Origin: a virus
Length of the DNA stretch: 64,000 bases
IMG/VR virus record: IMGVR_UViG_3300027302_000005
Location: 18,458 to 82,457 of that record
Direction: 5' to 3' (one strand)
The notes under the pieces were generated by a model. The model was not told the origin of the DNA, searched no databases, and was given only the letters and a program-made list of their open reading frames with translations. Every line of letters begins with the position of its first letter. Position 1 is the first letter of the stretch. This document shows, piece after piece, positions 2,359 to 52,287 of this stretch. The position numbers and the translations under genes are program-made.

Positions 2359-2551
2359 CCGACAGATATTCCCGTTATCTGTGTTAAAAGATTGTTACAC
2401 TGTTGCTAGAACTGACAAGAAGATAATGGAATTGCTTGGGCTTTCTACAGACATTCCATTACCAAGTAATCAGCGCATCTATCATTTCTGTTTATATGAG
2501 CAAGGGATTGTTGTTGCAGAGCTATATCAATTTGATGACAAAGAGGACTGA
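2345..2551 (+). CDS. hypothetical protein
   Basis: Overlapping ORF in operon. Confidence 0.6.
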   Translation: MKIIDRQIFPLSVLKDCYTVARTDKKIMELLGLSTDIPLPSNQRIYHFCLYEQGIVVAELYQFDDKED

Positions 2552-2559
2552 GACACAAT

Positions 2560-3504
2560 ATGAAAATTGAACAACCTGAATGGGTGCAAGAATACTTCCA
2601 TCTTATTGACAACGGCTTCAGTCAACGGGGGGCTGCTGCTGTACTAGGTATTCCACGAACTACAATCCAAGACTACTTGAAACGTGTTGAACGTAACAAA
2701 GAGATGGCAAGCAATACCAAACCTAAAGGAATGCGCGTGCTTCTCGTGGATTTGGAGAGCGCACCAACTTTAGCTTACGTGTGGCGACGTTGGAAGCAGA
2801 ACATCGGTAGTAACCAAGTTGAGAAAGAAGGGAGCTACATGCTCACAGCAGCTTGGAAATGGCTTGGTGAAGATGAGATGCACTGTGCTTTCGCCAAAGA
2901 CCCGGTTGAGGGGGATGATAGCAATATCTGTGCATTGTTATATGAAGCTATTGAAAACTCAGACGTGATTGTGGCTCACAATCTCAATGGGTTCGATTAT
3001 CCAATCCTGAATGCTCGGATGATTCAGAACGGCTTCCCGCCAATGAAAACCGTCAAGAAGGTTGATACGCTTGCAATTGCAAAGAAGAACTTTCGATTTA
3101 ACACGAACAAGTTGGATGACTTGGGTAAGTATCTGGGTGTTGGACGTAAGATTGAGACTGGTGGGTTTGAGCTTTGGCACAAGACAATCAAAGGAGACAA
3201 TGAGGCATTCTGTCAGATGATGGACTATAACAAGCAAGATGTTCTGTTGCTTGAGCAAGTTTATCTAAAGCTTCGTGCCTTTGACACCAATCCAGCAGCT
3301 AATGCTGGCCACTACTACGAAGATAACCTTAGTCGCTGTCCTGTGTGCGGAAGCAGTGAAGTTGTGGAAACAGGAAACAATGTCTACACACCCGTAAGCC
3401 GCTTTGCTGAGATGATTTGTAACGATTGTGGGCATCGTAGCCGTCAACGACACAATATCAGTGACATCGAGAAGCGCAGAGGAATGCTCATCACACCTAA
3501 ATAA
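2560..3504 (+). CDS. DnaQ/DEDD-like 3'-5' exonuclease with N-terminal HTH and C-terminal Zn ribbon
   Basis: HTH SQRGAAAVLGIPRTTI; ExoI DLES, ExoII HNLNGFD, ExoIII YNKQD; CPVC...CNDC. Confidence 0.85.
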   Translation: MKIEQPEWVQEYFHLIDNGFSQRGAAAVLGIPRTTIQDYLKRVERNKEMASNTKPKGMRVLLVDLESAPTLAYVWRRWKQNIGSNQVEKEGSYMLTAAWKWLGEDEMHCAFAKDPVEGDDSNICALLYEAIENSDVIVAHNLNGFDYPILNARMIQNGFPPMKTVKKVDTLAIAKKNFRFNTNKLDDLGKYLGVGRKIETGGFELWHKTIKGDNEAFCQMMDYNKQDVLLLEQVYLKLRAFDTNPAANAGHYYEDNLSRCPVCGSSEVVETGNNVYTPVSRFAEMICNDCGHRSRQRHNISDIEKRRGMLITPK

Positions 3505-3631
3505 AGTCCAATTTTCTGTACACTACCCCCTAAAACAGCACATAATGGTCAATAAAGAGGCCATTATGCTGCTTCATCTATCGAACATATCCCTTCGATA
3601 TGCCCCATCTGTAAATCTTTTCTCAAAGCTG

Positions 3632-3660
3632 TTGACACATATCTTCCTTTTCAGTAAACT
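3632..3660 (+). promoter_or_regulatory. sigma70-type promoter
   Basis: TTGACA-N17-TAAACT in intergenic gap. Confidence 0.75.
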
Positions 3661-3693
3661 CCCCTTATCGAAACAAACAACGCGAGAAGAACA

Positions 3694-4050
3694 ATGTACA
3701 CAATCTCATTCTCAGCAACATTCCCTGAAGATTTCTATCAAGAAATCAAGACAACATTTCTTGAGAAGAAGCTATCTTGGCGAAGCATTGATTCTGTTGG
3801 GTTGACAATGTGGCAATCAATGGCATTTCGTCGATTTGCAAATCACCGAGACAGCTATTACATTGGTGGAAACTACGGAGAGAAGGACACAACACTATTT
3901 CAAGATGCTAATTGTTGTGTTACAATGACCTGTACAATTCCGGCAGAATACAATGAGGAATTTAAGATGCTGTTACAACAGTTCCTTATTAGTTGTGCTG
4001 ATGATTTTGATCTCTATGTGAACAAAGGGGAAGAATATGAACAAGTTTAA
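3694..4050 (+). CDS. hypothetical protein
   Basis: First ORF after promoter. Confidence 0.7.
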   Translation: MYTISFSATFPEDFYQEIKTTFLEKKLSWRSIDSVGLTMWQSMAFRRFANHRDSYYIGGNYGEKDTTLFQDANCCVTMTCTIPAEYNEEFKMLLQQFLISCADDFDLYVNKGEEYEQV

Positions 4051-4672
4051 AGTCGGGGATAAGGTGGAACTGAAGCACGACACTTACGGCTTTCTAGCAA
4101 AGGCTGGATTTCGTATGGGCAAGGTGTATACAGTTAAAGAGGTGGACACTGAAACTGATCGGGTATATGTCAAAGAAACTCTTGGTTGTATACATTACAC
4201 TCATTTTGAACTTTACAAAGAACCAACTCAGGAGAAACAACCAATGAAAACCAAACACATCCCTTTCAGTGAAGATTCATGGACAAAGAACAGAACGTGT
4301 AGCGTATTCTGGAAGCCTACGAATACAGTGATTCTCTATTTTAACCGTTGGTTAGATGGGCATGATAGCCGATTCATTGGTGTGTGTAAAGCAACTGAAT
4401 CAGAATACTGTGCAACAACTTTTAGCCAGTACGACTTTTCCAACATGGAACTGGAAATCCCCGTAACAACCAAGCGTATTCCGTTTGATGCTAGTCGGAA
4501 AGATGCGAAGGTGCTGCTTGCTCATGCAAACAGTCGGGTTGAATTGATTGAATGGGTACAGATGGAAAAGAGTAGCGTTGTAGTCGGGGTTACTGAAGAT
4601 AAGCTAGATTGCGGTGGGTTTTTCACCGCAATATATCACCCTAATGATCTTGAAATGGAAATTGAAGAATAA
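4037..4672 (+). CDS. hypothetical protein, KOW/SH3-like N-terminus and internal repeat
   Basis: KFKVGDKV start; repeated KHIPF...MELEI / KRIPF...LEMEI. Confidence 0.7.
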   Translation: MNKFKVGDKVELKHDTYGFLAKAGFRMGKVYTVKEVDTETDRVYVKETLGCIHYTHFELYKEPTQEKQPMKTKHIPFSEDSWTKNRTCSVFWKPTNTVILYFNRWLDGHDSRFIGVCKATESEYCATTFSQYDFSNMELEIPVTTKRIPFDASRKDAKVLLAHANSRVELIEWVQMEKSSVVVGVTEDKLDCGGFFTAIYHPNDLEMEIEE

Positions 4673-4908: not shown

Positions 4909-5458
4909 CTTCAAGGTTGGGGATATTGTAGTTTGGAATGGAATGTGTGGTGACAAAACATTTGAAATTGGTAAAAAGGGAAAGGTTATGGAGTATTACA
5001 CTACACATGACGTAGATTTTTTAAGGGTTGATGTTGCTGGATACCAAGACTCTTACTTTGCTTGGCGTTGGGATTTGGTTTCACCAGAAACTACGATTTC
5101 AACCACTGTTGAAACAGAGCAACCCACTGAAACCAAAGCTACACAAACAGGTGGAAGCACACCAAACCAATATCGTCTTTCTATCAACCTCCCTTTGACA
5201 GAAGATCGTACACAATACGTTGATGTTGATCTTGAAGCAATGGATGTTATTGATGCTTTGGATTTGTCTGGTAATCTGAAAGATGTTCAGAAAGCCTTGT
5301 TCCGTATGGGGAAGAAAGATGGAACGCCAGAAACATATGATTTCAACAAGTGCATCTTCTTCTTGTTGCGGGAGATGAAGAAACGTGGCATTATTAGTCA
5401 TGGGAAGTTTTGGGAAGCTACTAAAGCTATTGATGAAGTGCTGAGTAAATGTGAATGA
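4901..5458 (+). CDS. hypothetical protein, DUF3310-like C-terminus
   Basis: EAMDVIDAL...KALFRMGKKDG...DFNKC resembles the DUF3310 pattern. Confidence 0.6.
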   Translation: MNDFKVGDIVVWNGMCGDKTFEIGKKGKVMEYYTTHDVDFLRVDVAGYQDSYFAWRWDLVSPETTISTTVETEQPTETKATQTGGSTPNQYRLSINLPLTEDRTQYVDVDLEAMDVIDALDLSGNLKDVQKALFRMGKKDGTPETYDFNKCIFFLLREMKKRGIISHGKFWEATKAIDEVLSKCE

Positions 5459-5724
5459 AAACCTATAATTACATCCCCTACCAAGAGTATTGTCCGATTG
5501 ATTGCACTGTAGAATATCGTCGGAAATACAATGTTGGGGATGTGTTCGAGAATAAAGCTAAGTGCTTGTCATGCGGGGATGTGATTACATCAAAGCATGT
5601 ACATGATTTTGTCTGGTGTAGTTGTGGGAAGTTGGGTGTTGATGGGGGTAGCCACTATGCTAAGCGTAATTTCCAGAATGTTGATGGGTGGGAAGAGATG
5701 TCTGTTGCATATGAAAATGTGTAA
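5455..5724 (+). CDS. Cys-rich hypothetical protein
   Basis: CLSCGDVITSKHVHDFVWCSCG..VDGG. Confidence 0.7.
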   Translation: MKTYNYIPYQEYCPIDCTVEYRRKYNVGDVFENKAKCLSCGDVITSKHVHDFVWCSCGKLGVDGGSHYAKRNFQNVDGWEEMSVAYENV

Positions 5725-5733
5725 TGGTATAAT
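5705..5733 (+). promoter_or_regulatory. sigma70-type promoter
   Basis: TTGCAT-N17-TATAAT with extended TG. Confidence 0.6.
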
Positions 5734-5766
5734 TATTTTCCGGTACGGTGAAATAGGAGAAAGTTA

Positions 5767-6279
5767 ATGCGGAAGTATGGGCTAAAAGAATTTGAAGAGG
5801 ATATTGCTTTCTTCAACGAAGCATGTGGTGTGGCGTCTTACGATGAAGACAGTAAGCCAGAAGATGTGTATCAAGGTGTTCTAAGGCAATACAACATCAT
5901 TCAAGAAGAACTGAATGAACTCAAACATGCTGCTGAAACACAAGACGAAACAGAAATGTTGGATGCTGTTGTCGATGTCCTATTCACATCCTTACGGTTG
6001 GTTAGTCTACTTGATAAGCGTTACAATATAATGGCTGGATGTAAAGCTGTTGCAGAGAACAACGCTTTAAAATATACAAGCAGTAAAGATAGAGCGAGAC
6101 AGTGGCAGATGACTAAGAAAGAGAAAACGATTGACTGTGAATTAGTTGAAACTAACGTATTTACAGGCTATGATTGTGGAACGGACTATGACACCTACTA
6201 TTGCATCAAGAACGCAAAAGGTAAGGTGCTGAAGTATGAAGGATTCCCTCAGGTTGATTTAAGCGTTATGAGGAACTGA
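5767..6279 (+). CDS. MazG/all-alpha NTP pyrophosphohydrolase
   Basis: IQEELNEL...EMLDAVVDVL...NNALK...GKVLK. Confidence 0.75.
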   Translation: MRKYGLKEFEEDIAFFNEACGVASYDEDSKPEDVYQGVLRQYNIIQEELNELKHAAETQDETEMLDAVVDVLFTSLRLVSLLDKRYNIMAGCKAVAENNALKYTSSKDRARQWQMTKKEKTIDCELVETNVFTGYDCGTDYDTYYCIKNAKGKVLKYEGFPQVDLSVMRN

Positions 6280-10368: not shown

Positions 10369-11361
10369 TTGTCAGTGTTTAAAGAAAGTGCTTCATACCG
10401 CCCATTCACATATCCTTGGGCAATGGAAGCAAGTAAGAAACATGCAGTAGAGATGTTCTGGGATGTGCATCAATTAGATTTACAAGATGACTTGCGTCAG
10501 TACAATACAGTTGGTGGACTCGCTACAAAGAATGTAAGTCACGAAACAAACAAGTATATCATTGACCAGTTGCTTTGTGTATTTACTGAAATGGACAAAA
10601 CCGTTGCAAGCGGATATATTCAGTTGTTGCCATACATTAAGAACAATGAAGCTCGTACTTGGTTCTTGACAGCAGCGCAGCGAGAGACGGTTCATCAGCG
10701 TGGATATGCCTTGGCTGCTGAGACGTTTGGATTCTCTGATAAGGATTGGAGTAAGTTTGCTGAATACGCTGAAATGCGTGAGAAGCTAGATGCAATGACT
10801 GCTGAAAACCTGAATGGACGAGACGAATATAAGGCTGCTGTCATCTTGGCTACAATTCTGCTAGGGGAGGGCATTGGCTTGTTTGGTGCGTTTGCTTGTT
10901 TGTTGAATTACAAGCGCCAAGGTTTGATCATGGGCTTTAATGATGTCAACCAATGGTCGTTAAGCGACGAACAAGACCATGTGACGCAAAACATTCGCTG
11001 GCTGGAAGAGATGCGTAAGGACTTGACTGAAGCTGAGAATTGGCAACTTAACAAGGTTATTCGTCAAGTTGTACATCGCTTTGTTGAAGCTGAACATCGT
11101 TTTATTGAACTTGTCTACTCTCTTGGTCAACAAGAAGACATGACAGAAGAACAGTTGAAACAATACATCACATTCTTAGGTCAATTGCGGTTGTTCCAGT
11201 TGGATTTGCTGAGCCTTGAGGAAGTTCCTACGAATCCGCTTGATTGGATGGAGTGGATGTTGTCTGCCGGTAAACATGATGCTTTCTTTGAGAAGCGCGT
11301 TACGGACTACTCTCATCGTAAACTAGATGGGAAAGTGGATTACAGTAAATACCGTAAATAA
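10369..11361 (+). CDS. nrdB: class I ribonucleotide reductase beta subunit
   Basis: ETVHQRGY, EG, DEQDH diiron/radical motifs, FFEKRVTDY; TTG start after AAGGAG. Confidence 0.96.
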   Translation: MSVFKESASYRPFTYPWAMEASKKHAVEMFWDVHQLDLQDDLRQYNTVGGLATKNVSHETNKYIIDQLLCVFTEMDKTVASGYIQLLPYIKNNEARTWFLTAAQRETVHQRGYALAAETFGFSDKDWSKFAEYAEMREKLDAMTAENLNGRDEYKAAVILATILLGEGIGLFGAFACLLNYKRQGLIMGFNDVNQWSLSDEQDHVTQNIRWLEEMRKDLTEAENWQLNKVIRQVVHRFVEAEHRFIELVYSLGQQEDMTEEQLKQYITFLGQLRLFQLDLLSLEEVPTNPLDWMEWMLSAGKHDAFFEKRVTDYSHRKLDGKVDYSKYRK

Positions 11362-11365
11362 CTTG

Positions 11366-11395
11366 TTGACAAGCACAAGGATGTGCTGTTATGCT
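11366..11395 (+). promoter_or_regulatory. sigma70-type promoter
   Basis: TTGACA-N18-TATGCT with extended TG. Confidence 0.65.
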
Positions 11396-11437
11396 TCACT
11401 TACTTTAACAGACAAGCCGAATGGTTGGAGAATTGAC

Positions 11438-12001
11438 ATGAACAAACCTAAACTGAAAGACATCGGTATTACCACAGAAAACTACCGGGAACATCTGAAA
11501 ATTGGTGATAAGGTATGGGTGGATGAGGGTGGAGAGAGTGTTGCTACTGTTGTGGAGTTCGATGATAGGGTTAAAACTGACCTCAAAGTTAAGGTGGATG
11601 GGGATTGCGATTCGTGGCCTTGGTTGTATAACATCCACCTCATTGACAACGAAGCACCTGAAAGCCATGATACCACTCAATTCAAAGCAATGAAGATTCG
11701 TATCAAAGATGAAGAACATTCTCGTCTTGTGCAGGAGACACTGTTTGGGATGGGGTGTGGGTGGGATTATGACAGTAAAACGGTGAAACACACAGGCGAA
11801 GAGGTTCTCTGGGTAGATGATGGAACTATCTCTTACTCTGATATGAGTAGTTTCAATGAGTTTCCAAATAAGGAGATGGAACTTGTCACTTCCTACTCTC
11901 TTCGGCCTATACCGAAGTCAGAAAAAGACTTGCAAATTGAAGCCCTGCAAAAGCAGATTGAAGCTTTGCAAGAACAACTGAACGAACTGAAAAATGACTA
12001 G
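11438..12001 (+). CDS. hypothetical protein with C-terminal coiled coil
   Basis: GGAG RBS; QIEALQKQIEALQEQL. Confidence 0.7.
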   Translation: MNKPKLKDIGITTENYREHLKIGDKVWVDEGGESVATVVEFDDRVKTDLKVKVDGDCDSWPWLYNIHLIDNEAPESHDTTQFKAMKIRIKDEEHSRLVQETLFGMGCGWDYDSKTVKHTGEEVLWVDDGTISYSDMSSFNEFPNKEMELVTSYSLRPIPKSEKDLQIEALQKQIEALQEQLNELKND

Positions 12002-12284
12002 AGAAGAACTTTCTTCACATCTTCTGTCCCTTGGGTGGGAGATGTCACATTTCGGTAATCTATCCACTCTTGTAACACAAGTGGGGAGACATGGATTGCC
12101 AGTTGTTGTAAAATACACTATCCGCTTCACCAAGGTTAGTGCTATAATTTACAAGGAAGACGTAGAAGCTCCGTTGACACTTGGTTGGTTTCAACGTAAC
12201 ATCCGGCTAGGAAGCAGTAAGCTGATTGGCATAACGCCTAGAGAGGATGGGAGTGTTTGTATTGGTGGCGTTGTTATTAAATGA
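11994..12284 (+). CDS. hypothetical protein
   Basis: Overlapping ORF. Confidence 0.6.
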   Translation: MTREELSSHLLSLGWEMSHFGNLSTLVTQVGRHGLPVVVKYTIRFTKVSAIIYKEDVEAPLTLGWFQRNIRLGSSKLIGITPREDGSVCIGGVVIK

Positions 12285-12299
12285 CTAGAGAGAAGAATC

Positions 12300-12563
12300 A
12301 TGCTTGAAGCAGTGTATTTGGTAGGGTGTGTTGTATTTGTTGGTATCTATGGATACTGGTGTCAGACACACATTGAGAACAAAGCCTTGATGTTCTTTGC
12401 TTCTCTGGTTGGTGGGATGATTATTGGGACAGCTATTCATGTTGTTCTGGTTGATTCAGTCAACAACACAAACACAGATGTAGGTTTTTGGATGGAAGCT
12501 GCAAAGATGCAGATTATTGACATTGAACAGGAAGATCGTTCAGTTTTTGAAGCAGGAAATTAA
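12300..12563 (+). CDS. membrane protein
   Basis: Two hydrophobic segments. Confidence 0.6.
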   Translation: MLEAVYLVGCVVFVGIYGYWCQTHIENKALMFFASLVGGMIIGTAIHVVLVDSVNNTNTDVGFWMEAAKMQIIDIEQEDRSVFEAGN

Positions 12564-12581
12564 AAGAGAGTGGTGAAGGAA

Positions 12582-12701
12582 ATGTTTGAAATGATGCGGG
12601 TGGAGACGCTACAATCCTTTGTAGCGTTTTCTATTACAGTTGTTGTCGCTATGGCGATGCTTTGGTTGTTCTACAATAATGACAACGACAGGTGGCCGTA
12701 A
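12582..12701 (+). CDS. small membrane peptide (not in ORF track)
   Basis: AAGGA RBS, 39 aa with one hydrophobic helix, ends 1 nt from the convergent gene. Confidence 0.5.
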   Translation: MFEMMRVETLQSFVAFSITVVVAMAMLWLFYNNDNDRWP

Positions 12702-30378: not shown

Positions 30379-31098
30379 CTAAATTGTTTGTTTGAAGTCC
30401 TCCATGAACTTTTTACAAAGTTCCTCAGTAACTTCGTTATCTGGCAGTCTTCCGTGTTTTTCGATAAACGAATTGACAAGCTGTTCTCTAATAACTCTTG
30501 CCGATTCTATATCTTTGAAAAACCCTACCACATATTTTCTTTTTGATTTTAACGAAATTTTTAAAACATACCCATCTCGTTCTGTGTAGTCTAATCCGAT
30601 TACACCAAATTTGTTCCTACACCCTCGGTTTAGGCAGTTAGCAACCCTATTCACGAACCTACAATTCTCTGGTGTATAGTTACCGTCGTTGTCAATTCGG
30701 TCGATTTGCAACCCCTCTACATATCCAGCAGAAAAGGCCCAATCCCTAAATGTTTCAAACTTACTCCACTCGTCACATAGAGTGATTCCTTTTGCAGTAT
30801 ATGTCTTGTGTTGCGGGTGCACTTTAAAGCACCTGATACGGATATTTCTATACATATCATGCAGTTTAGTACCACAAAGTCCGTGTGAGGTATTATCTTT
30901 AAGTCCAATATACTTCCCACATCCACAAGTTTTTGTGTTACCACTTGTGAGATTGTTTGCTGGTACAATTGTTTTGTTCCCACAAGAACAGATACATTCC
31001 CAAGCAATCCGTTTACCAATGTTGAAATCTGCCCGCTTAATTACGAGCAGATTTCCATACTGCTTACCTGTCAAATCCACTACTTGCATTATGTCCAC
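30379..31098 (-). CDS. free-standing HNH homing endonuclease
   Basis: DLTGKQYG, CICSCG, ITLCDEW, IDRIDNDGNYTPENCRF. Confidence 0.9.
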   Translation of the reverse strand: MDIMQVVDLTGKQYGNLLVIKRADFNIGKRIAWECICSCGNKTIVPANNLTSGNTKTCGCGKYIGLKDNTSHGLCGTKLHDMYRNIRIRCFKVHPQHKTYTAKGITLCDEWSKFETFRDWAFSAGYVEGLQIDRIDNDGNYTPENCRFVNRVANCLNRGCRNKFGVIGLDYTERDGYVLKISLKSKRKYVVGFFKDIESARVIREQLVNSFIEKHGRLPDNEVTEELCKKFMEDFKQTI

Positions 31099-31115
31099 CT
31101 CTGATTAAAAAGATG

Positions 31116-31143
31116 AATATAACACAAGTAGATTCATTGTCAA
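31116..31143 (-). promoter_or_regulatory. sigma70-type promoter of the HNH gene
   Basis: TTGACA-N16-TATATT with extended TG. Confidence 0.6.
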
Positions 31144-31151
31144 CCTATAAA

Positions 31152-32186
31152 TCAGGTCGAGCTATAGAGACGGACAACAGCAGCCGGACGGCGAGCAACA
31201 GCCAGCAGGTTCATTTCCGAACGGATGATGACAGAGCCATCAATCGGGTCGCGGTGAGTAAACAGATAAGACTCTTGACCTTGGGTATTTATCGTGCTCA
31301 TCGTGTTAGCCGGAGCGGCATACACACCGAACACATCCATAGTACCAGCAGGAACAAGGCGTGCTTCGTTAGCGGTCATAAACGCAGTGCCACCGAAGTC
31401 AGAACCACGATATTCGATGAAGCGTACACCACCGTATTCAAACACGCGAGTACCCATCGGCAGATTGCTCTCCAGACGCTGACGCAGCGGCTCTTGAGTG
31501 GACGAGTAGTAGGTGTAGGCAGCTTGCACCTTGGCGTGCTTAATCAGGTTGCTGAAGAAGCCCGGAGAGCAGAAGGCGATAAAGCCAGTAGCCACTTCAC
31601 CACCTGCTTGCAGGTTGTCGATGATGTGGGCAATACCTTCTTCCACTTTACCCATGATGTCAGTGGTGGACGTACCAAACACGAAATCAATTTCCTTACG
31701 GGTGATACCAAACTCAGTATAGAAGTTGGTAGAAATCGTACCGTTCGGGGCGTAGATCGTGCCGTCAGCCAGCAGTTGAGCAAACGCCTTTTCCTTCAGT
31801 TGCATATGCGACATACGGATACGTTCGATCTTACGAGCCAGAGCCAACCCTTCTTGTTCAGCTTGATCGACAGTGCCGTAGGCAGAGCGAGAAGCAATAT
31901 CTTCCGGCTTCAGAACATCATCCAGCGGGAAGTGAGGAACGTTGAAGGAATACAGCTTACGCACATAATCCTTAGAAACGTTGTTACGTTCACCACGAAT
32001 CCGGTCAACCATAACAGCGCCAGACTTGGTGATTTGTTCCATGCTAACAGTGGAAGTGGTGACACCTTCAGTAGCGGGGAAAATACCAGATTGAGTGATA
32101 ATACCCCACTGGTTAGGAATCAGATTAATTTCCGGTGTGCGGTCGATGATCTGAAAAGCATCGGTGTAAGAGCGAACTACGGCCAT
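31152..32186 (-). CDS. major capsid protein (lambda E-like family)
   Basis: PHFPLDD, FEYGGVRFIEY, APANTM, EMNLL..RRPAAV; strong codon bias. Confidence 0.92.
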   Translation of the reverse strand: MAVVRSYTDAFQIIDRTPEINLIPNQWGIITQSGIFPATEGVTTSTVSMEQITKSGAVMVDRIRGERNNVSKDYVRKLYSFNVPHFPLDDVLKPEDIASRSAYGTVDQAEQEGLALARKIERIRMSHMQLKEKAFAQLLADGTIYAPNGTISTNFYTEFGITRKEIDFVFGTSTTDIMGKVEEGIAHIIDNLQAGGEVATGFIAFCSPGFFSNLIKHAKVQAAYTYYSSTQEPLRQRLESNLPMGTRVFEYGGVRFIEYRGSDFGGTAFMTANEARLVPAGTMDVFGVYAAPANTMSTINTQGQESYLFTHRDPIDGSVIIRSEMNLLAVARRPAAVVRLYSST

Positions 32187-32205
32187 TACCTATATCTCCT
32201 TATTA

Positions 32206-32907
32206 TTAGATTTGAGCTTCAGCGATAATGCCGACAGCAGCCATTTGAGCGTAGATAGCATCCTTCTCAGGAGTGGTATCAATCGAACTACCCAGAGTGA
32301 GGGCATTCTTGGCAACAATGGCAGGGCCACGCTCCAGAATCAGCACAGTGGTATCAGTGGTGGCAGCAACAGAAGTATCGCCATAAGCACCGACAGTTCC
32401 GCCAATGTAGATACCGGCAAACACGTTGCTTCCATCGGTTGCGTTGTTTTCCAGAATCTTGTACTTTTCAGTGCCGGACACAGTGATGGTGAAAGTGTCA
32501 CCAACGATGAAATCGGTAGAGCCGTCAGCCAGCGTGAAGGCCAGACCAGCGCCAACGAAAGCCGAAGCTACGTTACCAGTGCCAACCAGCGCACCATTTT
32601 GGTTGCGAATTTCAAAAGCACCAGCGTTGCTGGCAGCAGCGGTAATACGCAGGGTGTAGGTACCGATACGAGCATGAGAGGAAACAGTGATGCTTCCCAT
32701 CGCGCCGTTACCAGTGTTACCAGAGCCAGCTACGGCAGCAGCAGCGCCGCTAACCAGAGTTTTACCCAGAACAGTACCGGGGGTGTAAGTCTTCAGGGAC
32801 GCTTCATAAGCGGTTACAGCCTTGCGGCAGAAGCCAGCGTTAGGCTCAAACTCGTACTTGACGACATTGCCAATACGTGTACCTTCAGTGGCAATCAATG
32901 CAGCCAT
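32206..32907 (-). CDS. head decoration protein
   Basis: VKYE, GTVLGK, LERGPAIV; between scaffold and capsid. Confidence 0.85.
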   Translation of the reverse strand: MAALIATEGTRIGNVVKYEFEPNAGFCRKAVTAYEASLKTYTPGTVLGKTLVSGAAAAVAGSGNTGNGAMGSITVSSHARIGTYTLRITAAASNAGAFEIRNQNGALVGTGNVASAFVGAGLAFTLADGSTDFIVGDTFTITVSGTEKYKILENNATDGSNVFAGIYIGGTVGAYGDTSVAATTDTTVLILERGPAIVAKNALTLGSSIDTTPEKDAIYAQMAAVGIIAEAQI

Positions 32908-44059: not shown

Positions 44060-45361
44060 ATGACTAACAAAGTAGAGATTTTAGATGCAATCATGTCTTC
44101 TGGTAAGACTACTGCTATCTTGAACTGGTTTGATAACAACCTAAACCAAAGGTACATCTACGTAACACCACTGCTGTCGGAAGCTGAAGGAAGAATTGCT
44201 GATACAGAGTATGGTTGTAAGTATGCTAAGTTCTACAGTCCTGAACATGCTACAACAACCTATTTCGATGAAGATGGTGTTGAACGTATAATCAGTGGGA
44301 AAGGTGTAGACTTCCTGAGACTGCTAAAGGAAGGAAAGAATGTAAGCTGTACACATGCTTTGTTCTCAGAGATGACAAAGCACCATCTTGACTGGATTAA
44401 GTCACAGAAGTACATTGTTGTACTGGACGAAGAGCTAGATGTAATCTCTGGTCTTGATGGATTCACTAAGACAGACAAAGAGTTCCTGCTTGACAACAAC
44501 ACAATCTCTATTGATGAAGAGAATGGTAAGGTTAGTTGGATAAAGCAAGTACCTAACAATGGATTCAAGTATGGGAAGTTCAAATGGTTGTGTGATGAGG
44601 GGATGTTGTATGCAGCCAAACGTTCACAACACATGATGGTGGTGCAGCTTCCGATTGAACTGATTGCTGCCGCTGAACGGTTCATTGTCCTAAGTTATTT
44701 GTTCAAGGGGAGTGTATTTGATAAGTTCCTACAACTTCACAAGATTGATACAGCAGATTTCACTGATGTTGTTGTGGATAGTAGGGGCGTGAAGGAACGG
44801 ATTGCTTCACTGATTGAAATTGTTGGGTTTGAACACACAAGTAAGTTCCGAACTGGCTCTTTGTCATACAATTGGTATGATGAGTCTAATAATAAGTTGA
44901 AACCGATTGAGAATGCTATTACTGGCCTTGGTAGAAGTTTAGGAATGAAAGCAGAAGATGTGATGTACACATTCCCTAAGACTTATGCCTATCCTTCAAG
45001 AAGCAATAGTAGAAAGATTTCAGCTAAAGGCTACAAGCCAGAGAGCATTATCAAAGGAGTGAGAGATGAATACGGTAACACTGTAATCAATAAGTGTTGG
45101 GTGGATTGCTCTTGTCGTGCAACCAATGAGCTTGCCAACAAGAAGTTGCTTGTACACTGCCTGAACCGCTATCCTAATGCTGTTGTGCAGGCTTTCTTGC
45201 AAGACTATGGATATGGTATTGACGAAGACAACTTTGCTTTGTCAGAGATGTTGCAGTGGATGTTCCGTGGATGCGTACGCAAAGGTGAGAAAATGTATGT
45301 TTGCATTCTCAGTAAACGTATGCTAGGATTGTACAATAAATGGCTGGAGAGTATTAAATGA
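44060..45361 (+). CDS. SF2 helicase-like P-loop ATPase
   Basis: DAIMSSGKTT, YVTPLLSE, VVLDEE, RATN, QWMFRGCVR. Confidence 0.75.
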   Translation: MTNKVEILDAIMSSGKTTAILNWFDNNLNQRYIYVTPLLSEAEGRIADTEYGCKYAKFYSPEHATTTYFDEDGVERIISGKGVDFLRLLKEGKNVSCTHALFSEMTKHHLDWIKSQKYIVVLDEELDVISGLDGFTKTDKEFLLDNNTISIDEENGKVSWIKQVPNNGFKYGKFKWLCDEGMLYAAKRSQHMMVVQLPIELIAAAERFIVLSYLFKGSVFDKFLQLHKIDTADFTDVVVDSRGVKERIASLIEIVGFEHTSKFRTGSLSYNWYDESNNKLKPIENAITGLGRSLGMKAEDVMYTFPKTYAYPSRSNSRKISAKGYKPESIIKGVRDEYGNTVINKCWVDCSCRATNELANKKLLVHCLNRYPNAVVQAFLQDYGYGIDEDNFALSEMLQWMFRGCVRKGEKMYVCILSKRMLGLYNKWLESIK

Positions 45362-47059
45362 GTAGCATCAAACAACGCACCAAAGCAAAACGTATGCGAA
45401 TGTGGGGATGGCGTCAGTTGTACACGATCAACCCATATGACATGGGTAGAGATTTTCGTACATTTGTTGGGTATACAAATGGTTGGCATGACACAGAAGG
45501 GTGGGGGTATTAAATGAATACTTGTAAAAACTGTAAGTTCTTTGGAGAAGAAATTGTTACATATGATGGAGAAGATTGGGAAGAAGTGAAATCAGAGTTC
45601 CATGAGTGTGAACGAATCTACCATTGCAAAGATATGCGCTCTGTTTTGCAATATCAATCTAAAGCTGTTGTGGTTGATGGAGGCGGTTATTTCGCTGCTT
45701 TGCGTGTTGCTGAAGATTTTGGATGTATTCATTTCGAGGAAACAACATGAATGATCTTACTGACCTGAACGATATTGAGTTTGCTATCTTTGCTGCTGAC
45801 GAGGAACATGATAAATACATGCGGAAGATGCAAGAAGAACGTACTGCTATTGAGATGATGATTGAAACTGCAACTAAATGTGGGATGTTGCATGAAGTTG
45901 TTACAACATTTGCATATGATTTTGCATCTAACGGTAAGAATGTATGTGAGGCTGTCAATACAGCACTTTATGAATGGGATTGTTGAAATGAACCTAAACA
46001 AACTAAACATGATGGAAGAAGGGTTGGAGAAGATCGCACAAGTGCTATCTGAGCAATACCATGAAAGTGTTACACCGATTGACATCCTTTATGCTATCAG
46101 TCATCTTATTGAAGCAGAGGATTTTGATAGGATTGCTAGGTATATAGCGGAGGATTAAAATGAACCTTAACCAGAAGATTAAGCTGTATCAAGCACTAAG
46201 GGATGCTACCGAGGTACTGGATGAGATTTGCGATAAGTCCGTTTCCATTTATCTGGTACTTTCGGTGCTGTCTGATATGGGCTGTGGAATGGACAACGAC
46301 AACTATGTTCAGATGATTGATTTTATAGAAGGGCAGGAAAATTAAATGAGCGCACTATTCTTGTACAACACACCTCTAGGTTATGGCTACCGATACAAGC
46401 ACATAACAGATACGCCTTCCGATAAGGATGAATACCGCCCTATGTACACTGAAGATGAACTTGAGCAAATGCGTGAGAATAAAATTAAGAAGAAGATTAA
46501 GAAACTTCTGAAACGTCTTGAAGAGCTTGAATTGGAGTTGCAACAATATGACTAACTTACTGTTGAAGTTTCATGCAAGTAAGGAAAACCTTCCAGATAA
46601 CGGGCAAGCGGTAGTATACCTCTGTCAAGGTCGTTCGTTCGGCATCTCAGATGTTTCACTAGCGTCTTGCACAGTGTATTATCTAGCTACAGACGGAGAA
46701 TCATCTTGGTGCATTAATGATGGCGATACGTTTGGTGATAATGACGTTGTTGGTGTCTACATAGGTCATAAAGATGCTACACAGCAAAACATTTGGTGGA
46801 TTGACGAGGAAGAATACTGGCAGCAATTTGATGTAGCTGATGCAGAATTGGAGCAGGTGAAATGAAAGACAATGGTGTTAAGCGTCATTCAAAAACAAGA
46901 TGTTCATATCAGTGCCGGTATTACCAAGATGGTCCTGTTATGTCAATCTGTAACAAGTATCACAAGCATCTGCAATACGGCGGATCAATTCCGCCACTTA
47001 TGACACAAGAATGCCTTGATTCGCTGAAGTCGGAAAATGAAGATGACAGACCAACATAA
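45358..47059 (+). other. run of small hypothetical CDS (45358-45513, 45514-45750, 45747-45986, 45988-46158, 46160-46345, 46346-46555, 46548-46865, 46862-47059)
   Basis: Tightly tiled ORFs with RBSs and stop/start overlaps. Confidence 0.65.
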
Positions 47060-47180
47060 CTACGGAAAATGGTTATTTATGATGGAATATTGCAAGACAA
47101 ACGGATGGTCTCCATCTGATAGTTATTATTGGAGTAGGGCTGAAGAGGCTTACTACATCTCCGTAGGATTGCTGAAATGA
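47043..47180 (+). CDS. 45 aa Trp/Tyr-rich peptide, copy 1
   Basis: KWLFMMEYCKTNGWSPSDSYYWSRAEEAYYISVG; paralog at 50849. Confidence 0.75.
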   Translation: MTDQHNYGKWLFMMEYCKTNGWSPSDSYYWSRAEEAYYISVGLLK

Positions 47181-47416
47181 CCATCACAAACACTCTATAC
47201 CAATGTGCCAAGCAACAATCATTCCAGCCCCTGCTAAAGCATCGACAAGAGCTTGAAATTGCTTTACAACTTCTTCTTGCTGTTGGTGACAAAGCGAAAG
47301 AATATAACGAACCAGTTGACATCTGGCTCCATGTAGAATACATTGCAGATCGTTGGATGTGTTCTTCCAGAATTGCTTGGTTGTTGAAACAATTGGATGA
47401 GAATGAAAATGTCTAA
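47177..47416 (+). CDS. hypothetical protein
   Basis: ATGA-coupled ORF. Confidence 0.6.
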   Translation: MTITNTLYQCAKQQSFQPLLKHRQELEIALQLLLAVGDKAKEYNEPVDIWLHVEYIADRWMCSSRIAWLLKQLDENENV

Positions 47417-47624
47417 AAAGTTCTATGCTGTACATCGTGAAACAGGTGAGAGGTGGAAACCTTGTAAGGATAGTAGTACCGAGCATGAATACATTGTAAT
47501 GTACGACACTGGTTATTTTGCTGTTGTGAAGGATTACGGGTGGGATGGACTCACCATTCAAGCATTGGATACAAAGGTTTGGAAGGTTATTTGGAAAGAT
47601 AAAGATGAATGGCTTAGAGGATAA
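47409..47624 (+). CDS. hypothetical protein
   Basis: Tiled ORF. Confidence 0.6.
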   Translation: MSKKFYAVHRETGERWKPCKDSSTEHEYIVMYDTGYFAVVKDYGWDGLTIQALDTKVWKVIWKDKDEWLRG

Positions 47625-47625
47625 A

Positions 47626-48219
47626 ATGAAGAAACCGAGAGAGCTTCCTTCACAGCAAGATTTATTAAAACTGTTTTATTACGATAACGGTTTAAAGTGG
47701 AAAGAAGGTAGAAAAGGCAGCAAGCTGTGCAATAAAGATGGAGATGTTGTTGGTTGTGTTGGTAACGAAGGTTATGCCATGATAAACGTGTTTGGTGTTA
47801 CTTATATGTTAAGTAGGATTGTATACCAGACAGTTAACGGTAATCTGACCACTGATCTTGTTATAGATCACCTTAACAGAGATCGTAAAGATAATAGGAT
47901 TGAGAACTTGAGGGCTATTACCGAGAAGAATAATCTCAGAAGTAAAACTATGTACTCTAATAACTCAACAGGAGTTACAGGAGTAAGTTCACAAGCCTAT
48001 AAATACATGAAAAAAGATGGAACAGAGGTTGAACATCAATATTACACCGCCCATTGGCAAGACCCTTCAGGTAAGACGAGATTAAAGTGCTTCAGTATAT
48101 CTAAATACGGGAAAGAAGAGGCGTTTCATCTAGCTTGTGAATACCGACAAGCAATGATAGAGTCTCTTAAAAATTCTGGAGAGTGGTATGATGAAACACA
48201 CGGGAGTATGAAATGTTAG
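47626..48219 (+). CDS. HNH endonuclease with AP2 domain
   Basis: IDHLNRDRKDNRIENLR; NNSTGVTGV...FSISKYGKEEAF. Confidence 0.9.
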   Translation: MKKPRELPSQQDLLKLFYYDNGLKWKEGRKGSKLCNKDGDVVGCVGNEGYAMINVFGVTYMLSRIVYQTVNGNLTTDLVIDHLNRDRKDNRIENLRAITEKNNLRSKTMYSNNSTGVTGVSSQAYKYMKKDGTEVEHQYYTAHWQDPSGKTRLKCFSISKYGKEEAFHLACEYRQAMIESLKNSGEWYDETHGSMKC

Positions 48220-48255
48220 TATTGAAGTACTGTGACGAATGTGGAAAACCGACAA

Positions 48256-48684
48256 ATGAAGCCTAAATACCTCCAAGCCTTCATGGACATGACCGAACGC
48301 TTTGCTCAAACATCTGAAGCCACAAGGCTTAAAGTAGGGGCTTGTATCATCAAGAATGGCAACCCCATTGCTTTTGGTGTTAATGGGACATTGCCGGGGT
48401 GGGAAAGTAATACGTGTGAAAGCCAATCTGGTGAAACATTGCCAGACATTGTGCTACATGCTGAAATAAATGCCTTGAACAAGCTGCGGAAGATCAGTGA
48501 AAGCAGCAAGGATGCTACGTTGCTTGTAACACACTCCCCTTGTCTACGCTGTGCTCACGAAATTGTTGACAGTGGAATCAAGCATGTGTACTATAAGCAT
48601 CAGTACAGAAGCTCTGACGGAATAGAGCATCTTTTGAAGCACGGGATTGATGTGATACAACTTGCTACACATCTAGAGAATTGA
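48256..48684 (+). CDS. dCMP deaminase
   Basis: KVGACI, HAEINA, THSPCLRCA. Confidence 0.92.
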   Translation: MKPKYLQAFMDMTERFAQTSEATRLKVGACIIKNGNPIAFGVNGTLPGWESNTCESQSGETLPDIVLHAEINALNKLRKISESSKDATLLVTHSPCLRCAHEIVDSGIKHVYYKHQYRSSDGIEHLLKHGIDVIQLATHLEN

Positions 48685-48685
48685 C

Positions 48686-49195
48686 ATGAACATCTTCATC
48701 ACCAACGAATGCCCTATGCAATCAGCCACAGATCACTGTGACATTCACTTACGAAAGCAGTTAATCGAAAGTTGCCAATTGCTATCAACAGCACATCATT
48801 TCCTTGATGGCGAGACAATAGCGATGAAGCCCACACACTACAATCATCCCTGTGCTGTATGGGCGCGTAAGACCTCTGGTAATTACAAGTGGCTCTATCA
48901 ACATTATGTTGCTTTGTGTACGGAATACACGTATCGTACTGGCAAGGAACATGCTTCCAGTAGGTTTATCGGTGTTTTGAGTAAAGTTCCTGAAAACATC
49001 TTGCAAGAACGTCAGACATTCTTTGCAAAGGCGATGCCTGACGAACACAAAGCTATCCCGAATGTTCCATTGGCGTATCAGAGTTATCTGAATGTGAAGT
49101 TTAAAGATTGGCAGACACGTACAGACAAGAAGCAGATGCCTGTGCAGTGGACTAAGCGTAATATTCCTAGTTGGTATGTTGGAGAGAATAAATGA
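48686..49195 (+). CDS. pyrimidine-dimer glycosylase/DenV-like family protein
   Basis: MNIF, DIHLRKQLIESCQLLST, THYNHPCAVW, EYTYRTGKEH. Confidence 0.75.
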   Translation: MNIFITNECPMQSATDHCDIHLRKQLIESCQLLSTAHHFLDGETIAMKPTHYNHPCAVWARKTSGNYKWLYQHYVALCTEYTYRTGKEHASSRFIGVLSKVPENILQERQTFFAKAMPDEHKAIPNVPLAYQSYLNVKFKDWQTRTDKKQMPVQWTKRNIPSWYVGENK

Positions 49196-49845
49196 CATTT
49201 GCATTTTGTAACATTGCAAACTCTTTTGATGACCATATCTCGAAGTCAATTGAAAGTTACAATATATTGTTTAGTAATGTTACTTCTTTGGCTGATTTTT
49301 TTGTATTAAAAAACACCGTTATTGTAGATGTGGGCTCATCAACAGGTAAGTTGCTTCATTCACTGAAGCATAAGTATACAGAATATAAAATTAAATTCGT
49401 TGGTTACGAATGCGAGGAGGTTTTCTATGAGTATTACGATGACGATATAATAAAAAAACAAAATGCTCTGCTATACAACGAGAGTAATGTTTGTTTTTGC
49501 ACATGCATATTTACATTGCAATTCTTACCTATCGGTGAGAGAATGAACATATTGAATAACATATACAAGTCTCTTCTGCCGGGAGGGGGTTTTATAATTG
49601 CGGAGAAGACGAACAGTGGAAGTTATTTTGATAAGATTTTCCAAGAAATTTTAATTGAGGACAAAAGAAAGCACTTCACTGATGCTGAGTTATTAGATAA
49701 AAATCTCTCATTACGAACTATGATGAGAACTGTTAGCAACAGTGATATGGTCACTATGCTTAATCTTGCCGGTTTTATAGACGTAGATATATTCTATAAA
49801 GACAAGGCATTTACCGGATATGTTTGTCGGAAGGGTATATTATGA
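49192..49845 (+). CDS. cmoA: CmoA-like carboxy-S-adenosylmethionine synthase
   Basis: FDDHISKSIESY, DVGSSTG, FTLQFL...ER..ILNNIY..L.PGG.FIIAEK follow the CmoA pattern (FTLQFL...R..LL..IY..L.PGG.LVLSEK). Confidence 0.75.
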   Translation: MTFAFCNIANSFDDHISKSIESYNILFSNVTSLADFFVLKNTVIVDVGSSTGKLLHSLKHKYTEYKIKFVGYECEEVFYEYYDDDIIKKQNALLYNESNVCFCTCIFTLQFLPIGERMNILNNIYKSLLPGGGFIIAEKTNSGSYFDKIFQEILIEDKRKHFTDAELLDKNLSLRTMMRTVSNSDMVTMLNLAGFIDVDIFYKDKAFTGYVCRKGIL

Positions 49846-50849
49846 AAGTTGTGTCGCTGTTCTCTGGCTGTGGTGGGAGTAGTCTGGGATATAAGATGGC
49901 TGGTATGGAGGTTATGTGTGCTGTAGAGTTTATTAAAAGTGCTGCAGATTGTTATAAGGCTAATCACCCAACAACACCCATACTGGTAAAAGATATACGC
50001 CACATACGTGGTATAGACATTCTTGATGTTGCTGACTTGCAAGTAGGAGAACTTGATATTTTAGATGGAAGCCCTCCTTGTGCATCCTTTTCCGCCGTAG
50101 GCAAAAGAGAAAAACTCTGGGGCAAGGTGAAACAATACTCTAACACTAACCAACGAGTAGACGACTTGTTCTTTGAATATATCAGGATTGTAAATGAGTT
50201 AAAACCTAAAGTTGCGATTGCAGAAAATGTAAAGGGTTTAACTCAAGGCAAGTCAAAAGTAGTTTTGCAACAAATTCTTGACGAATTTTCAAATGTAGGG
50301 TATACACCTAACTTCAAAGTAATGAAAGCGTGCGATTTCGGAGCGCCGCAGGTAAGGGAGCGTGTAATTATTGTTGCAACAAGAAATGATATTCAATGCT
50401 CACCCTTTGTGTACCCAGAACCAACTCACAAAAAGGAACAATACGTGAGTGTTAAGGATGCAATATCTGATATTGTTAATAGTGTAGAGGAGGTAGAACT
50501 GCTGCTAGATGCTGGAAAGAAATACGCTAACATGCAGAAGTGGGACGAAATACCACGCCCCGGAATGTACCACCCTGTAAGATTTAATGTAGGTAAGAAT
50601 AGGTGGGACTACCCGAGTTACACAATAACGTACAACGACTCTAAACTAAACGCTGCCGGTCTTTGTCATCCATTTGAGAAGCGTAGGCACACCGTAGGAG
50701 AGATGAAAAGACTGATGGGATTCCCTGATTCATACGTGCTTCTAGGAACTTGGCAGGAACAAGTAGAGAGGCTTGGACGTAGTGTTTGTCCTCAAGTTAT
50801 TTGCGCTGTAGCCAAGCAAGTTGAGGACATCTTAAAGGAGAAAGTCTGA
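49842..50849 (+). CDS. DNA C5-cytosine transferase, predicted carboxymethyltransferase
   Basis: FSGCGG, GSPPC, ENV, QVRER; motif X is GRSV rather than GNSV. Confidence 0.85.
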   Translation: MKVVSLFSGCGGSSLGYKMAGMEVMCAVEFIKSAADCYKANHPTTPILVKDIRHIRGIDILDVADLQVGELDILDGSPPCASFSAVGKREKLWGKVKQYSNTNQRVDDLFFEYIRIVNELKPKVAIAENVKGLTQGKSKVVLQQILDEFSNVGYTPNFKVMKACDFGAPQVRERVIIVATRNDIQCSPFVYPEPTHKKEQYVSVKDAISDIVNSVEEVELLLDAGKKYANMQKWDEIPRPGMYHPVRFNVGKNRWDYPSYTITYNDSKLNAAGLCHPFEKRRHTVGEMKRLMGFPDSYVLLGTWQEQVERLGRSVCPQVICAVAKQVEDILKEKV

Positions 50850-50983
50850 TGATAGAACACAATTGCAGTAAATGGCTGTGGATGATGGAATACTGTAAGA
50901 CAAATGGTTGGCCACCAGCAGACAGTTATTATTGGAGTAGGGCCGAAGAAGCTTATTATATTTCTGTAGGGGCAATGAAATGA
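50849..50983 (+). CDS. 44 aa Trp/Tyr-rich peptide, copy 2
   Basis: KWLWMMEYCKTNGWPPADSYYWSRAEEAYYISVG. Confidence 0.75.
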   Translation: MIEHNCSKWLWMMEYCKTNGWPPADSYYWSRAEEAYYISVGAMK

Positions 50984-52287
50984 GAAGCACCAAGACTGTA
51001 ACAACACTAAAATGTGACATCTGCTGTCAGGAAATCACTGAAGAAGATAATTGTGATTCTCTTAGCGTGATGTTATCTGGTGGTGATCGGGATGTCTCCC
51101 CAGCCTATGTTTATTACAAATTGGACAGGATTGATATTCCTTACGGTAGAAGTGGAATGACGGACATTTGTAAGAAATGTCTAATTCCACGATTGAAGAA
51201 ATGGATTAATGAAAATGACAAATAACGATAAGATTGCCGACCTTGAAGCTCACATTGAACATCTGGAAGATGTACTGAAGCGAATCGCTGACATGGCACA
51301 TGATGCTTCTGGTACTTGTGGAGAAACGTTCAAAGATGTATATTGGGACATCCGTAACTTGGCTTATGAGGAATACTGATGAGTACACTTGAGTTTACAT
51401 ACGCTGAAGTTAGAAATCTAATCCAAGGTAAGTTTGATTTCCGTAAATGTCTTGAATGTGACGGTAGAGGTTGGGTTTGGGTTGATGGAGACATTGGTGA
51501 AACTGTTGCAGGGCCACAAGAAACAGAAGATAAGCAAAGGTATTACAGAGATTGTTGTGATTTCTGTGAAGGGCTTGGTGGATATTTAAAGGTGGATGAC
51601 AGATAATGCAACAATTCTCTTGTGGCCATTGGGCTACAGATATTGACGACAACGGCATTTTAGTAGCCCTGAAGGCACATGATGTAGATGAAGTGAATGG
51701 TGGGTATGTCAATGCTATCCACTACGCTACATATTGTACTGATTGTTATAATTATGCTGACAAGATGGGGCATGTGTTACATACAGATGAAGAAGAGATG
51801 GCTTGGATACGAGGAGAACATTGAAAATGAAACCAATAGTTGATGACGTAATCAAGCAATATAACATCCGCTTGTACAACGGAAGCTGGTATGTTACGGA
51901 AAAACAATTGCGGAAAGTGCTTGAAGAAATGATTGAAGATGTGTATATTGAAGGAAAGATTGATAGTGAAGAGGATGTGCAATGAGTAGCCATGAAATTG
52001 ATACAATTGTCCTTGGTGTTCCTTGTACAATTCAATATGATTATCAGCCGTATGAAGCCCCTGAACGTGGGCCTGAAGCACAATATCCCGGATGTCCAGA
52101 ATCTGTGTATATTGTAGATGTGCTTGTCGGTGACATCAGCGTTTGGGATTGGTTCGATGGCGATGATAATATGATGGAGTGTTTGGAAGATGTTGTGTAT
52201 GAATACAGGATAAATCAGTGCAAACAAGCATTGGAAGATAAGGCTGAATCACGGCAATCTGATTGGGAAGATGGGTGGATGGATTAG
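50980..52287 (+). other. run of small hypothetical CDS (50980-51225, 51379-51606, 51606-51824, ~51827-51985, 51982-52287), several with CxxC pairs
   Basis: Tiled ORFs; DnaJ-like CxxCxG pattern in 51379-51606. Confidence 0.65.

Follow-up and report, generated by a model that had tools for sequence, protein, structure and literature searches.

A predicted CmoA-CmoX pair for cytosine carboxymethylation of DNA in an 82-kb phage record

Results

A CmoA homologue overlaps an Arg-type C5-cytosine methyltransferase homologue

The DNA considered here, hereafter the window, is a stretch of 64,000 nucleotides (positions 18,458 to 82,457 of IMG/VR virus record IMGVR_UViG_3300027302_000005) that forms the final 64 kb of a linear phage record of 82,457 bp, with a G+C content of 42% and a completeness estimated by CheckV at 89%. 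It holds two overlapping genes, a homologue of cmoA, predicted to encode a carboxy-S-adenosylmethionine (Cx-SAM) synthase, and a homologue of cmoX, predicted to encode an enzyme that carboxymethylates cytosines of DNA (Table 1; positions are those of the window unless the record is named). The overlap of the two frames is real, because the TGA stop of cmoA (49843-49845) and the ATG start of cmoX (49842-49844) share nucleotides, and the public protein record for the cmoX gene (P0001) likewise has 335 amino acids (aa), that is, the identical start. The gene upstream overlaps the start of cmoA (ATG 49192) in the same ATGA manner. A sequence-only reading of the window had drawn attention to the overlapping frames, to intact FxGxG, PC, ENV and QxRxR motifs in the second of them and to an unusual motif X, LGRSV, with its CGT codon; each of these features is borne out by the translation described below.

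Table 1. Features of the cmoA-cmoX locus and of the genes that precede it (window positions)
Feature	Position	Strand	Product or size	Remarks
cmoA homologue	49192..49845	+	217 aa	predicted carboxy-SAM synthase; TIGR00740, SpCmoA, solved CmoA structures
cmoX homologue	49842..50849	+	335 aa	C5-cytosine methyltransferase fold of the Arg type; predicted to carboxymethylate C5 of DNA cytosines
ATGA stop/start overlap	49842..49845	+		couples cmoA to cmoX; read directly from the sequence
GAAGGG	49830..49835	+		Shine-Dalgarno-like, putative role; within the cmoA coding sequence, 6 nt 5' of the cmoX ATG
SPPC codons, S77-C80	50070..50081	+		catalytic Cys80, from the translation; C80 aligned with SpCmoX Cys-98
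CGT codon, Arg313	50778..50780	+		motif X (ERLGRSV); counterpart of SpCmoX Arg-350
HNH-AP2 homing endonuclease	47545-48219	+		
dCMP (deoxycytidine monophosphate) deaminase	48232-48684	+		
DenV-like protein	48686-49195	+	169 aa	PF03013 pyrimidine dimer glycosylase, E 3.8e-07; PHROG 624, E 5e-53

The same reading had mentioned a similar pair in a cyanophage, and such a pair is described from Synechococcus phage S-B43 (Yang et al., Nat Commun Dec 2025, PMC12783734). As described in that report, SpCmoA converts S-adenosylmethionine (SAM) and prephenate to Cx-SAM; SpCmoX, which is homologous to C5-methyltransferases, takes Cx-SAM as its sole cofactor and places 5-carboxymethylcytosine (5cxmC) at GC sites; and SpCmoY, an Asn-synthetase-like ligase, then attaches glycine. 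In the 1.9-Å structure of SpCmoX (8YF3) Arg-350 touches the carboxymethyl group, and the R350N variant is described as dead with either cofactor.

The cmoX product of the window matches PF00145 of Pfam over residues 1-327 (E 1.8e-64), and its translation contains LFSGCGG (F7, G9, G11), GSPPC (C80), AENV (E128-V130) and QVRER (Q170, R172, R174), together with a motif X, ERLGRSV, in which Arg313 stands where ordinary enzymes carry Asn. Its best solved relative by sequence is SpCmoX (8YF3, E 5.1e-61), with HaeIII next (E 4.9e-27), and an AlphaFold model (predicted local distance difference test, pLDDT, 92.8) also has 8YF3 as its best fold match, at a template modelling (TM) score of 0.84 and a root-mean-square deviation (rmsd) of 2.5, compared with a TM score of 0.73 and an rmsd of 6.8 for HaeIII. 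Residues F7, E29, F30, D51, C80 and R313 correspond in the pairwise alignment to Phe-25, Glu-47, Phe-48, Asp-69, Cys-98 and Arg-350 of SpCmoX, which means that all six of the named Cx-SAM-binding or catalytic residues are kept. Identity to SpCmoX is 38% overall and 48% in the N-terminal catalytic part, while in the target-recognition region, despite the good match of the whole-chain fold, 30 of 95 aligned residues (32%) are identical.

A protein search with the cmoX product returned 6,976 matches at E <= 1e-20. Among the best 120 of these the Arg313 column is Arg in 119, the exception being a truncated protein, and SPPC is present in all 120; in a separate alignment of 36 homologues Arg313 is invariant (36/36). 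Two observations on the architecture of the family may be recorded here. One homologue among those listed (P0014) has matches to Hint-domain models of Pfam, and in the jumbo Erwinia phage vB_EamM_Y3 (L094/L095; KY984068.1, ~30466-32472) the Arg-type CmoX lies in a 742-aa frame with a long intein-like insert right after the SPPC cysteine; in this phage cmoA stands beside an asparagine synthase gene and CmoX lies about 17 kb away.

The shifted arginine of CmoA is a trait of the phage branch

The cmoA product matches the NCBIfam CmoA model TIGR00740 with E 3.6e-21, its 75.9 bits lying far below the curated threshold of 193.3, and NF011995 with 52.6 where the threshold is 285. It matches PHROG 4752 (E 2.8e-40) and the solved CmoA structures 1IM8, 4IWN and 4GEK (E 3.5e-14 to 6.6e-12), and shares 35% identity with the assayed SpCmoA (E 3.6e-34 in a search of this genome) and 25% with Escherichia coli CmoA (EcCmoA). 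The CmoA-like identity proposed by the sequence-only reading is in keeping with all of these matches, although the family models are matched below their thresholds.

That reading had also suspected that an Arg of the C-terminal KR motif of CmoA was displaced, and the displacement can be seen in an alignment of 69 sequences, in which 66 CmoA homologues from related loci were joined with SpCmoA, EcCmoA and the protein of the window. Of the contacts of EcCmoA with SAM or Cx-SAM, Tyr39, Asp62, Gly64, Ser66 and Phe137 are all identical in the window protein, while Asp89 is replaced by Glu and Asn132 by Ile, as in most phage homologues. According to Byrne et al. (PMC3663124), Arg199 of EcCmoA is conserved and forms a salt bridge with the carboxylate. 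At this column Asn171 stands in the window protein and Glu188 in SpCmoA; four residues further on, where EcCmoA has Glu203, the two phage proteins have R175 and R192, respectively. The window CmoA and the biochemically active SpCmoA thus have a DK-x4-R pattern in common.

Arg occupies the +4 column in 34 of the 69 aligned proteins. When the Arg199 column and the +4 column are read as a pair, the commonest combination is E, R (26/69), followed by R, E (11/69), E, S (10/69), E, A and E, G (5/69 each), R, R (3/69), Q, R and A, R (2/69 each) and the N, R of the window protein (1/69); the remaining four pairs have no Arg. R175 may stand in for Arg199, but such a role is a guess, because 24 of the 69 homologues have Arg at neither column. 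What can be stated is that the displacement of this Arg characterises the phage branch of CmoA and is shared by an enzyme with measured activity. Since the assayed SpCmoA has Glu188, an Arg at the Arg199 column is not needed for activity in this branch, and, given that the swapped Glu/Arg pair (26/69) and the absence of Arg from both columns (24/69) are so frequent, Arg199 is not a reliable marker of Cx-SAM synthases. The residue taken as definitive of CmoA has given way to another in most CmoX-adjacent phage CmoAs, the assayed one included, and this bears on annotation rules.

cmoA and Arg-type cmoX are linked in related loci

The linkage of the two genes was examined in 81 related IMG/VR loci, 80 of them fetched with the 36-homologue alignment and one, a close relative, from a single-protein search. 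A cmoA homologue is present in 72 of the 81, and in 22 of the 23 loci that extend at least 5 kb on both flanks; of the nine loci without cmoA, six break off before 1.2 kb of sequence downstream of cmoX, the usual place of cmoA. The Arg motif is found in all 81 (in five of them it reads ERCGRMVPS); co-occurrence of the motif with cmoA neighbours had been offered as a check by the sequence-only reading. In 65 of the 72 loci cmoX precedes cmoA, the opposite of the order in the window. As a base rate, any CmoA-like match occurs in only 70 of 50,697 cultured-phage records, while the four cultured phages with Arg that were examined (S-B43, Mcat8, TurkishDelight and PaBG) all have cmoA within about 1.5 kb. 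On a larger scale, the survey reported with the S-B43 system lists 5,615 CmoX candidates, defined by SPPC plus Arg, from IMG/VR, UniProt and MGnify, with 4,257 CmoA proteins, 2,251 ligases and 1,660 ParB-domain proteins on their contigs (PMC12783734).

A variant of the motif is found in Methylophilales phage Melnitz-3 (L090, 4010-5227), in which a close relative of CmoX, 38% identical to SpCmoX, has Leu at the Arg position and no cmoA is present across the 13-kb locus; this enzyme may have reverted to another cofactor, or it may be inactive. Five further loci (L056, L057, L058, L074 and L081) each contain two separate full-length CmoX matches, both with the Arg motif, a hint that cmoX occurs there as pairs of paralogues whose target motifs perhaps differ.

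No CmoY-type ligase is found in the record

The absence of a cmoB-like gene and of an obvious downstream hypermodifying enzyme, noted by the sequence-only reading for the window, extends to the whole 82,457-bp record for the families searched. A tblastn search with E. coli CmoB gave a best E of 2.3 and one with SpCmoY a best E of 3.7; PF00733 (Asn-synthase) had 0 matches in the record, and none was found there for PF01507 (PAPS_reduct), PF13535 (ATP-grasp_4), PF00501 (AMP-binding) or PF02195 (ParB_N). The PP-loop motif SGGxDS occurs in no open reading frame (ORF) of the record of at least 60 aa. A 433-aa ORF at 44060-45361 was considered as a hidden modifying enzyme or ligase and set aside: it has no Pfam or Protein Data Bank match, and the protein atlas groups it with YonV/helicase-like proteins. 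Nine further ORFs without a Pfam match hit only HNH PHROGs or PHROGs of unknown function.

Among the 81 related loci, a CmoY-like gene is present in at least 31, as a rule no more than a few kb away from cmoX. Genomes without such a ligase nevertheless exist, because a related complete genome, the record of locus L022 (46.5 kb, terminal repeats), has cmoA and cmoX and no PF00733 domain. In another relative, 57% identical (L004), a PAPS-reductase/DUF3440 protein is encoded at 11290-12609, 2.3 kb downstream of cmoX and after a clamp-loader gene. The PAPS-reductase/DUF3440 family is related to PP-loop ATP pyrophosphatases, and this protein might be an alternative adenylating enzyme or might be unrelated.

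GC dinucleotides place up to 7,696 cytosines, or 22% of all cytosines in the 82,457 bp, at potential sites of an enzyme with the specificity of SpCmoX. The record is depleted of CpG (observed/expected 0.675) and not of GpC (1.06).

Neighbourhood, mobility and phage type

The cmoA-cmoX pair closes a series of closely spaced genes that point rightward, in which it follows the HNH-AP2 homing endonuclease, the dCMP deaminase and the DenV-like gene of Table 1. None of these three is a regular companion of cmoX, as they recur near it in 0, 3 and 1 of the 81 loci, respectively, and on this ground both the dCMP deaminase and the DenV-like gene were rejected as components of the system. The whole block, from the HNH endonuclease to cmoX, is bracketed by a diverged direct repeat of 145 nt (47053-47197 and 50856-51000; 76% identity, spacing 3,803 nt; also 47402-47419 / 51208-51225) that encodes two paralogous small proteins of 47 and 44 aa. 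The repeat may be the trace of a cassette insertion or of a local duplication. In a 12.3-kb IMG/VR fragment of a related phage (L002), PolA and CmoX are each 66% identical to the window proteins and CmoA only 37%, and the cmoA-cmoX pair (2483-4185) lies at another site than here, between an N6/N4 methylase gene and a 5'-3' exonuclease gene. Taken together, the bracketing repeat and the relocated position suggest that the pair moves as a mobile cassette. The same fragment carries two N6/N4 methylase genes.

Elsewhere the phage encodes DnaB, a family A polymerase, ribonucleotide reductase, ThyX, PhoH and an N6/N4 DNA methylase (PF01555, E 3e-33; record positions 5183-5935, 13 kb before the window), the last of which means that its DNA probably bears a second, ordinary methyl mark. 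The nearest cultured relative by PolA is Pseudomonas phage vB_PsaM_M1 (43%), and megablast of 48000-52000 against cultured phages gave no match. A search of sequencing runs for the stretch found one, from a riverine metagenome, that contains it entirely and may be its source, besides four with a small share of it, and listed no RNA run. Promoter-like and terminator-like sites between 43000 and 54000 (32 and 8) are no commoner than in shuffled sequence (30.6 and 6.6), and no operon boundaries are claimed for this reason.

Discussion

The evidence assembled above makes it probable, with good confidence on our part, that the two genes of the locus form a CmoA-CmoX module for DNA modification of the S-B43 kind. 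Judging from the homologous enzymes, CmoA would convert host SAM and host prephenate to Cx-SAM, and the translationally coupled CmoX would flip out its target cytosine, attack C6 with Cys80 and move the carboxymethyl group of Cx-SAM onto C5. Arg313 would hold the carboxylate, and we propose that plain SAM would therefore be excluded. The phage DNA would in this manner gain 5cxmC, which would probably block restriction enzymes. The sequence-only reading had arrived at the same prediction of Cx-SAM synthesis and 5cxmC writing; this chemistry has been demonstrated experimentally for the homologous S-B43 pair, whose CmoX structure is the best solved match of the window enzyme.

Several points weigh against this prediction. 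The cmoA product falls short of the NCBIfam equivalog cut-offs, it has no Arg at the column of EcCmoA Arg199, and about a third of its aligned homologues (24/69) have none at the shifted position either. The 81 loci were selected by likeness to Arg-type proteins and are hence not an unbiased sample. Because the target-recognition region is only 32% identical to that of SpCmoX, the GC specificity is not transferable with confidence, and a short target motif such as GC is a possibility for the window enzyme. As regards the end product, about 11% of the genome lies outside the record and could contain a ligase, a ligase of a family outside those searched could be overlooked, and the tblastn search with SpCmoY undercounts ligases, since it missed a 476-aa Asn-synthase-type gene of one related locus (L044) that the Pfam model detected.

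The points on CmoA could also be taken to mean that the methyltransferase is an ordinary SAM-dependent enzyme making 5-methylcytosine, while CmoA boosts 5-carboxymethoxyuridine (cmo5U) of host tRNA through host CmoB or drains SAM against SAM-dependent defences; SAM depletion by CmoA is raised as an open question in the Discussion of Yang et al. (PMC12783734), and the activities that we assign are predicted from homology. We regard this as very improbable. The Asn of motif X is replaced by Arg313, wild-type SpCmoX is reported to take only Cx-SAM and its R350N variant neither cofactor (PMC12783734), the record has no CmoB, and the tight ATGA coupling together with the family-wide linkage of cmoA and cmoX would be hard to explain. 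We consider it less credible still that either gene, or both, has decayed or is an inactive passenger carried by a mobile cassette. The bracketing direct repeat, the homing endonuclease within the block and the low identity of CmoA (37%) beside that of CmoX (66%) in the L002 fragment would fit such passengers, yet both frames are intact with all catalytic motifs present, the structure model of CmoX is a confident one, and the start signals and the translational coupling are kept.

A more serious alternative, although in our view an unlikely one, concerns the final base: 5cxmC might be an intermediate only, which a ligase or other enzyme turns into an amide, as is the case for CmoY in S-B43, or into some other derivative, the converting enzyme being encoded in the unsequenced part of the genome or in the host, or belonging to another family. 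The account of native S-B43 virion DNA in PMC12783734 gives the glycine amide and no free 5cxmC, a CmoY-like gene accompanies cmoX in a good part of the related loci, the record is incomplete, and the PAPS-reductase/DUF3440 protein of L004 could point to an enzyme of a different type. Against this stand the five ligase or accessory families and SpCmoY, none of which has a match in 82 kb; the position of CmoY, where present, within a few kb of cmoX, a region that is fully sequenced here; the related complete genome of locus L022, which lacks PF00733; and the published survey, which reports ligases for only 2,251 of the 5,615 CmoX contigs. The record holds no CmoY-type amide ligase, and therefore, if the pair works as a carboxymethylation module, free 5cxmC would be a likelier end product than the glycine amide. 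That free 5cxmC is the terminal modification of the virion DNA, here as in the ligase-less relative with locus L022, is a tentative proposal to which we would give somewhat less than an even chance.

The locus adds no new principle, because the system has been in print, along with thousands of candidates, since December 2025; the IMG/VR record studied here may itself already be among those 5,615 candidates. Apart from Yang et al., a limited literature collection yielded no report on a CmoX from nature, nor any on a native phage in which 5cxmC is terminal. The interest of the locus lies in its minimal form, two overlapping genes in a mid-sized phage that is not related to S-B43, with ligase, ParB and CmoB all lacking. 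To our knowledge, free 5cxmC is so far on record only from DNA that was recombinant or handled in vitro and never as the end product of a native virion, and the minimal pair is a clean candidate for asking whether it is ever a terminal natural DNA base; it is also a candidate for a compact carboxymethylation tool. Should the window enzyme have the GC specificity of SpCmoX, up to 22% of the cytosines of the record would bear a carboxylate. The relocation of cmoA-cmoX in a related phage further suggests that this capacity can move as a cassette.

When set beside known systems, the window CmoA resembles that of the E. coli CmoA/CmoB pathway for tRNA cmo5U (4GEK, 1IM8; PMC3663124) in its class I methyltransferase fold, in the five SAM contacts that are kept and, presumably, in the reaction of SAM with prephenate to give Cx-SAM. 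It differs in its low sequence identity and in the replacement of Arg199 by Asn171, and its acceptor enzyme is a DNA C5-methyltransferase homologue rather than CmoB. In the engineered M.MpeI N374K, cited in PMC12783734, a positive residue in place of the motif X Asn likewise lets a C5-methyltransferase use Cx-SAM; in that enzyme the residue is Lys and not Arg, the target is CG and the supply of Cx-SAM depends on host CmoA. Closer in kind are the uncharacterised clusters of the cultured phages PaBG, TurkishDelight and Mcat8, each with an Arg-type CmoX and an adjacent CmoA homologue. PaBG and TurkishDelight also have ParB-like genes and Asn-synthase or amidotransferase-type ligases, unlike the window phage, whereas Mcat8 resembles it, no ligase being annotated in a 17-kb stretch (from annotation only). 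The S-B43 system itself differs from that of the window in having the CmoY ligase, in its gene order (cmoA-cmoY-cmoX, compared with cmoA then cmoX with a 4-nt overlap) and in the type of phage, a 214-kb cyanomyovirus as opposed to an 82-kb phage with a T7-like PolA, DnaB and ribonucleotide reductase, and the proteins are only 38% (CmoX) and 35% (CmoA) identical. The two nevertheless share a CmoA homologue near an Arg-type C5-methyltransferase homologue, SPPC together with Arg at the R350 position, the same CmoX fold including the variable region (TM 0.84), the lack of CmoB and the DK-x4-R pattern of CmoA, which makes S-B43 the nearest characterised counterpart of the window pair.

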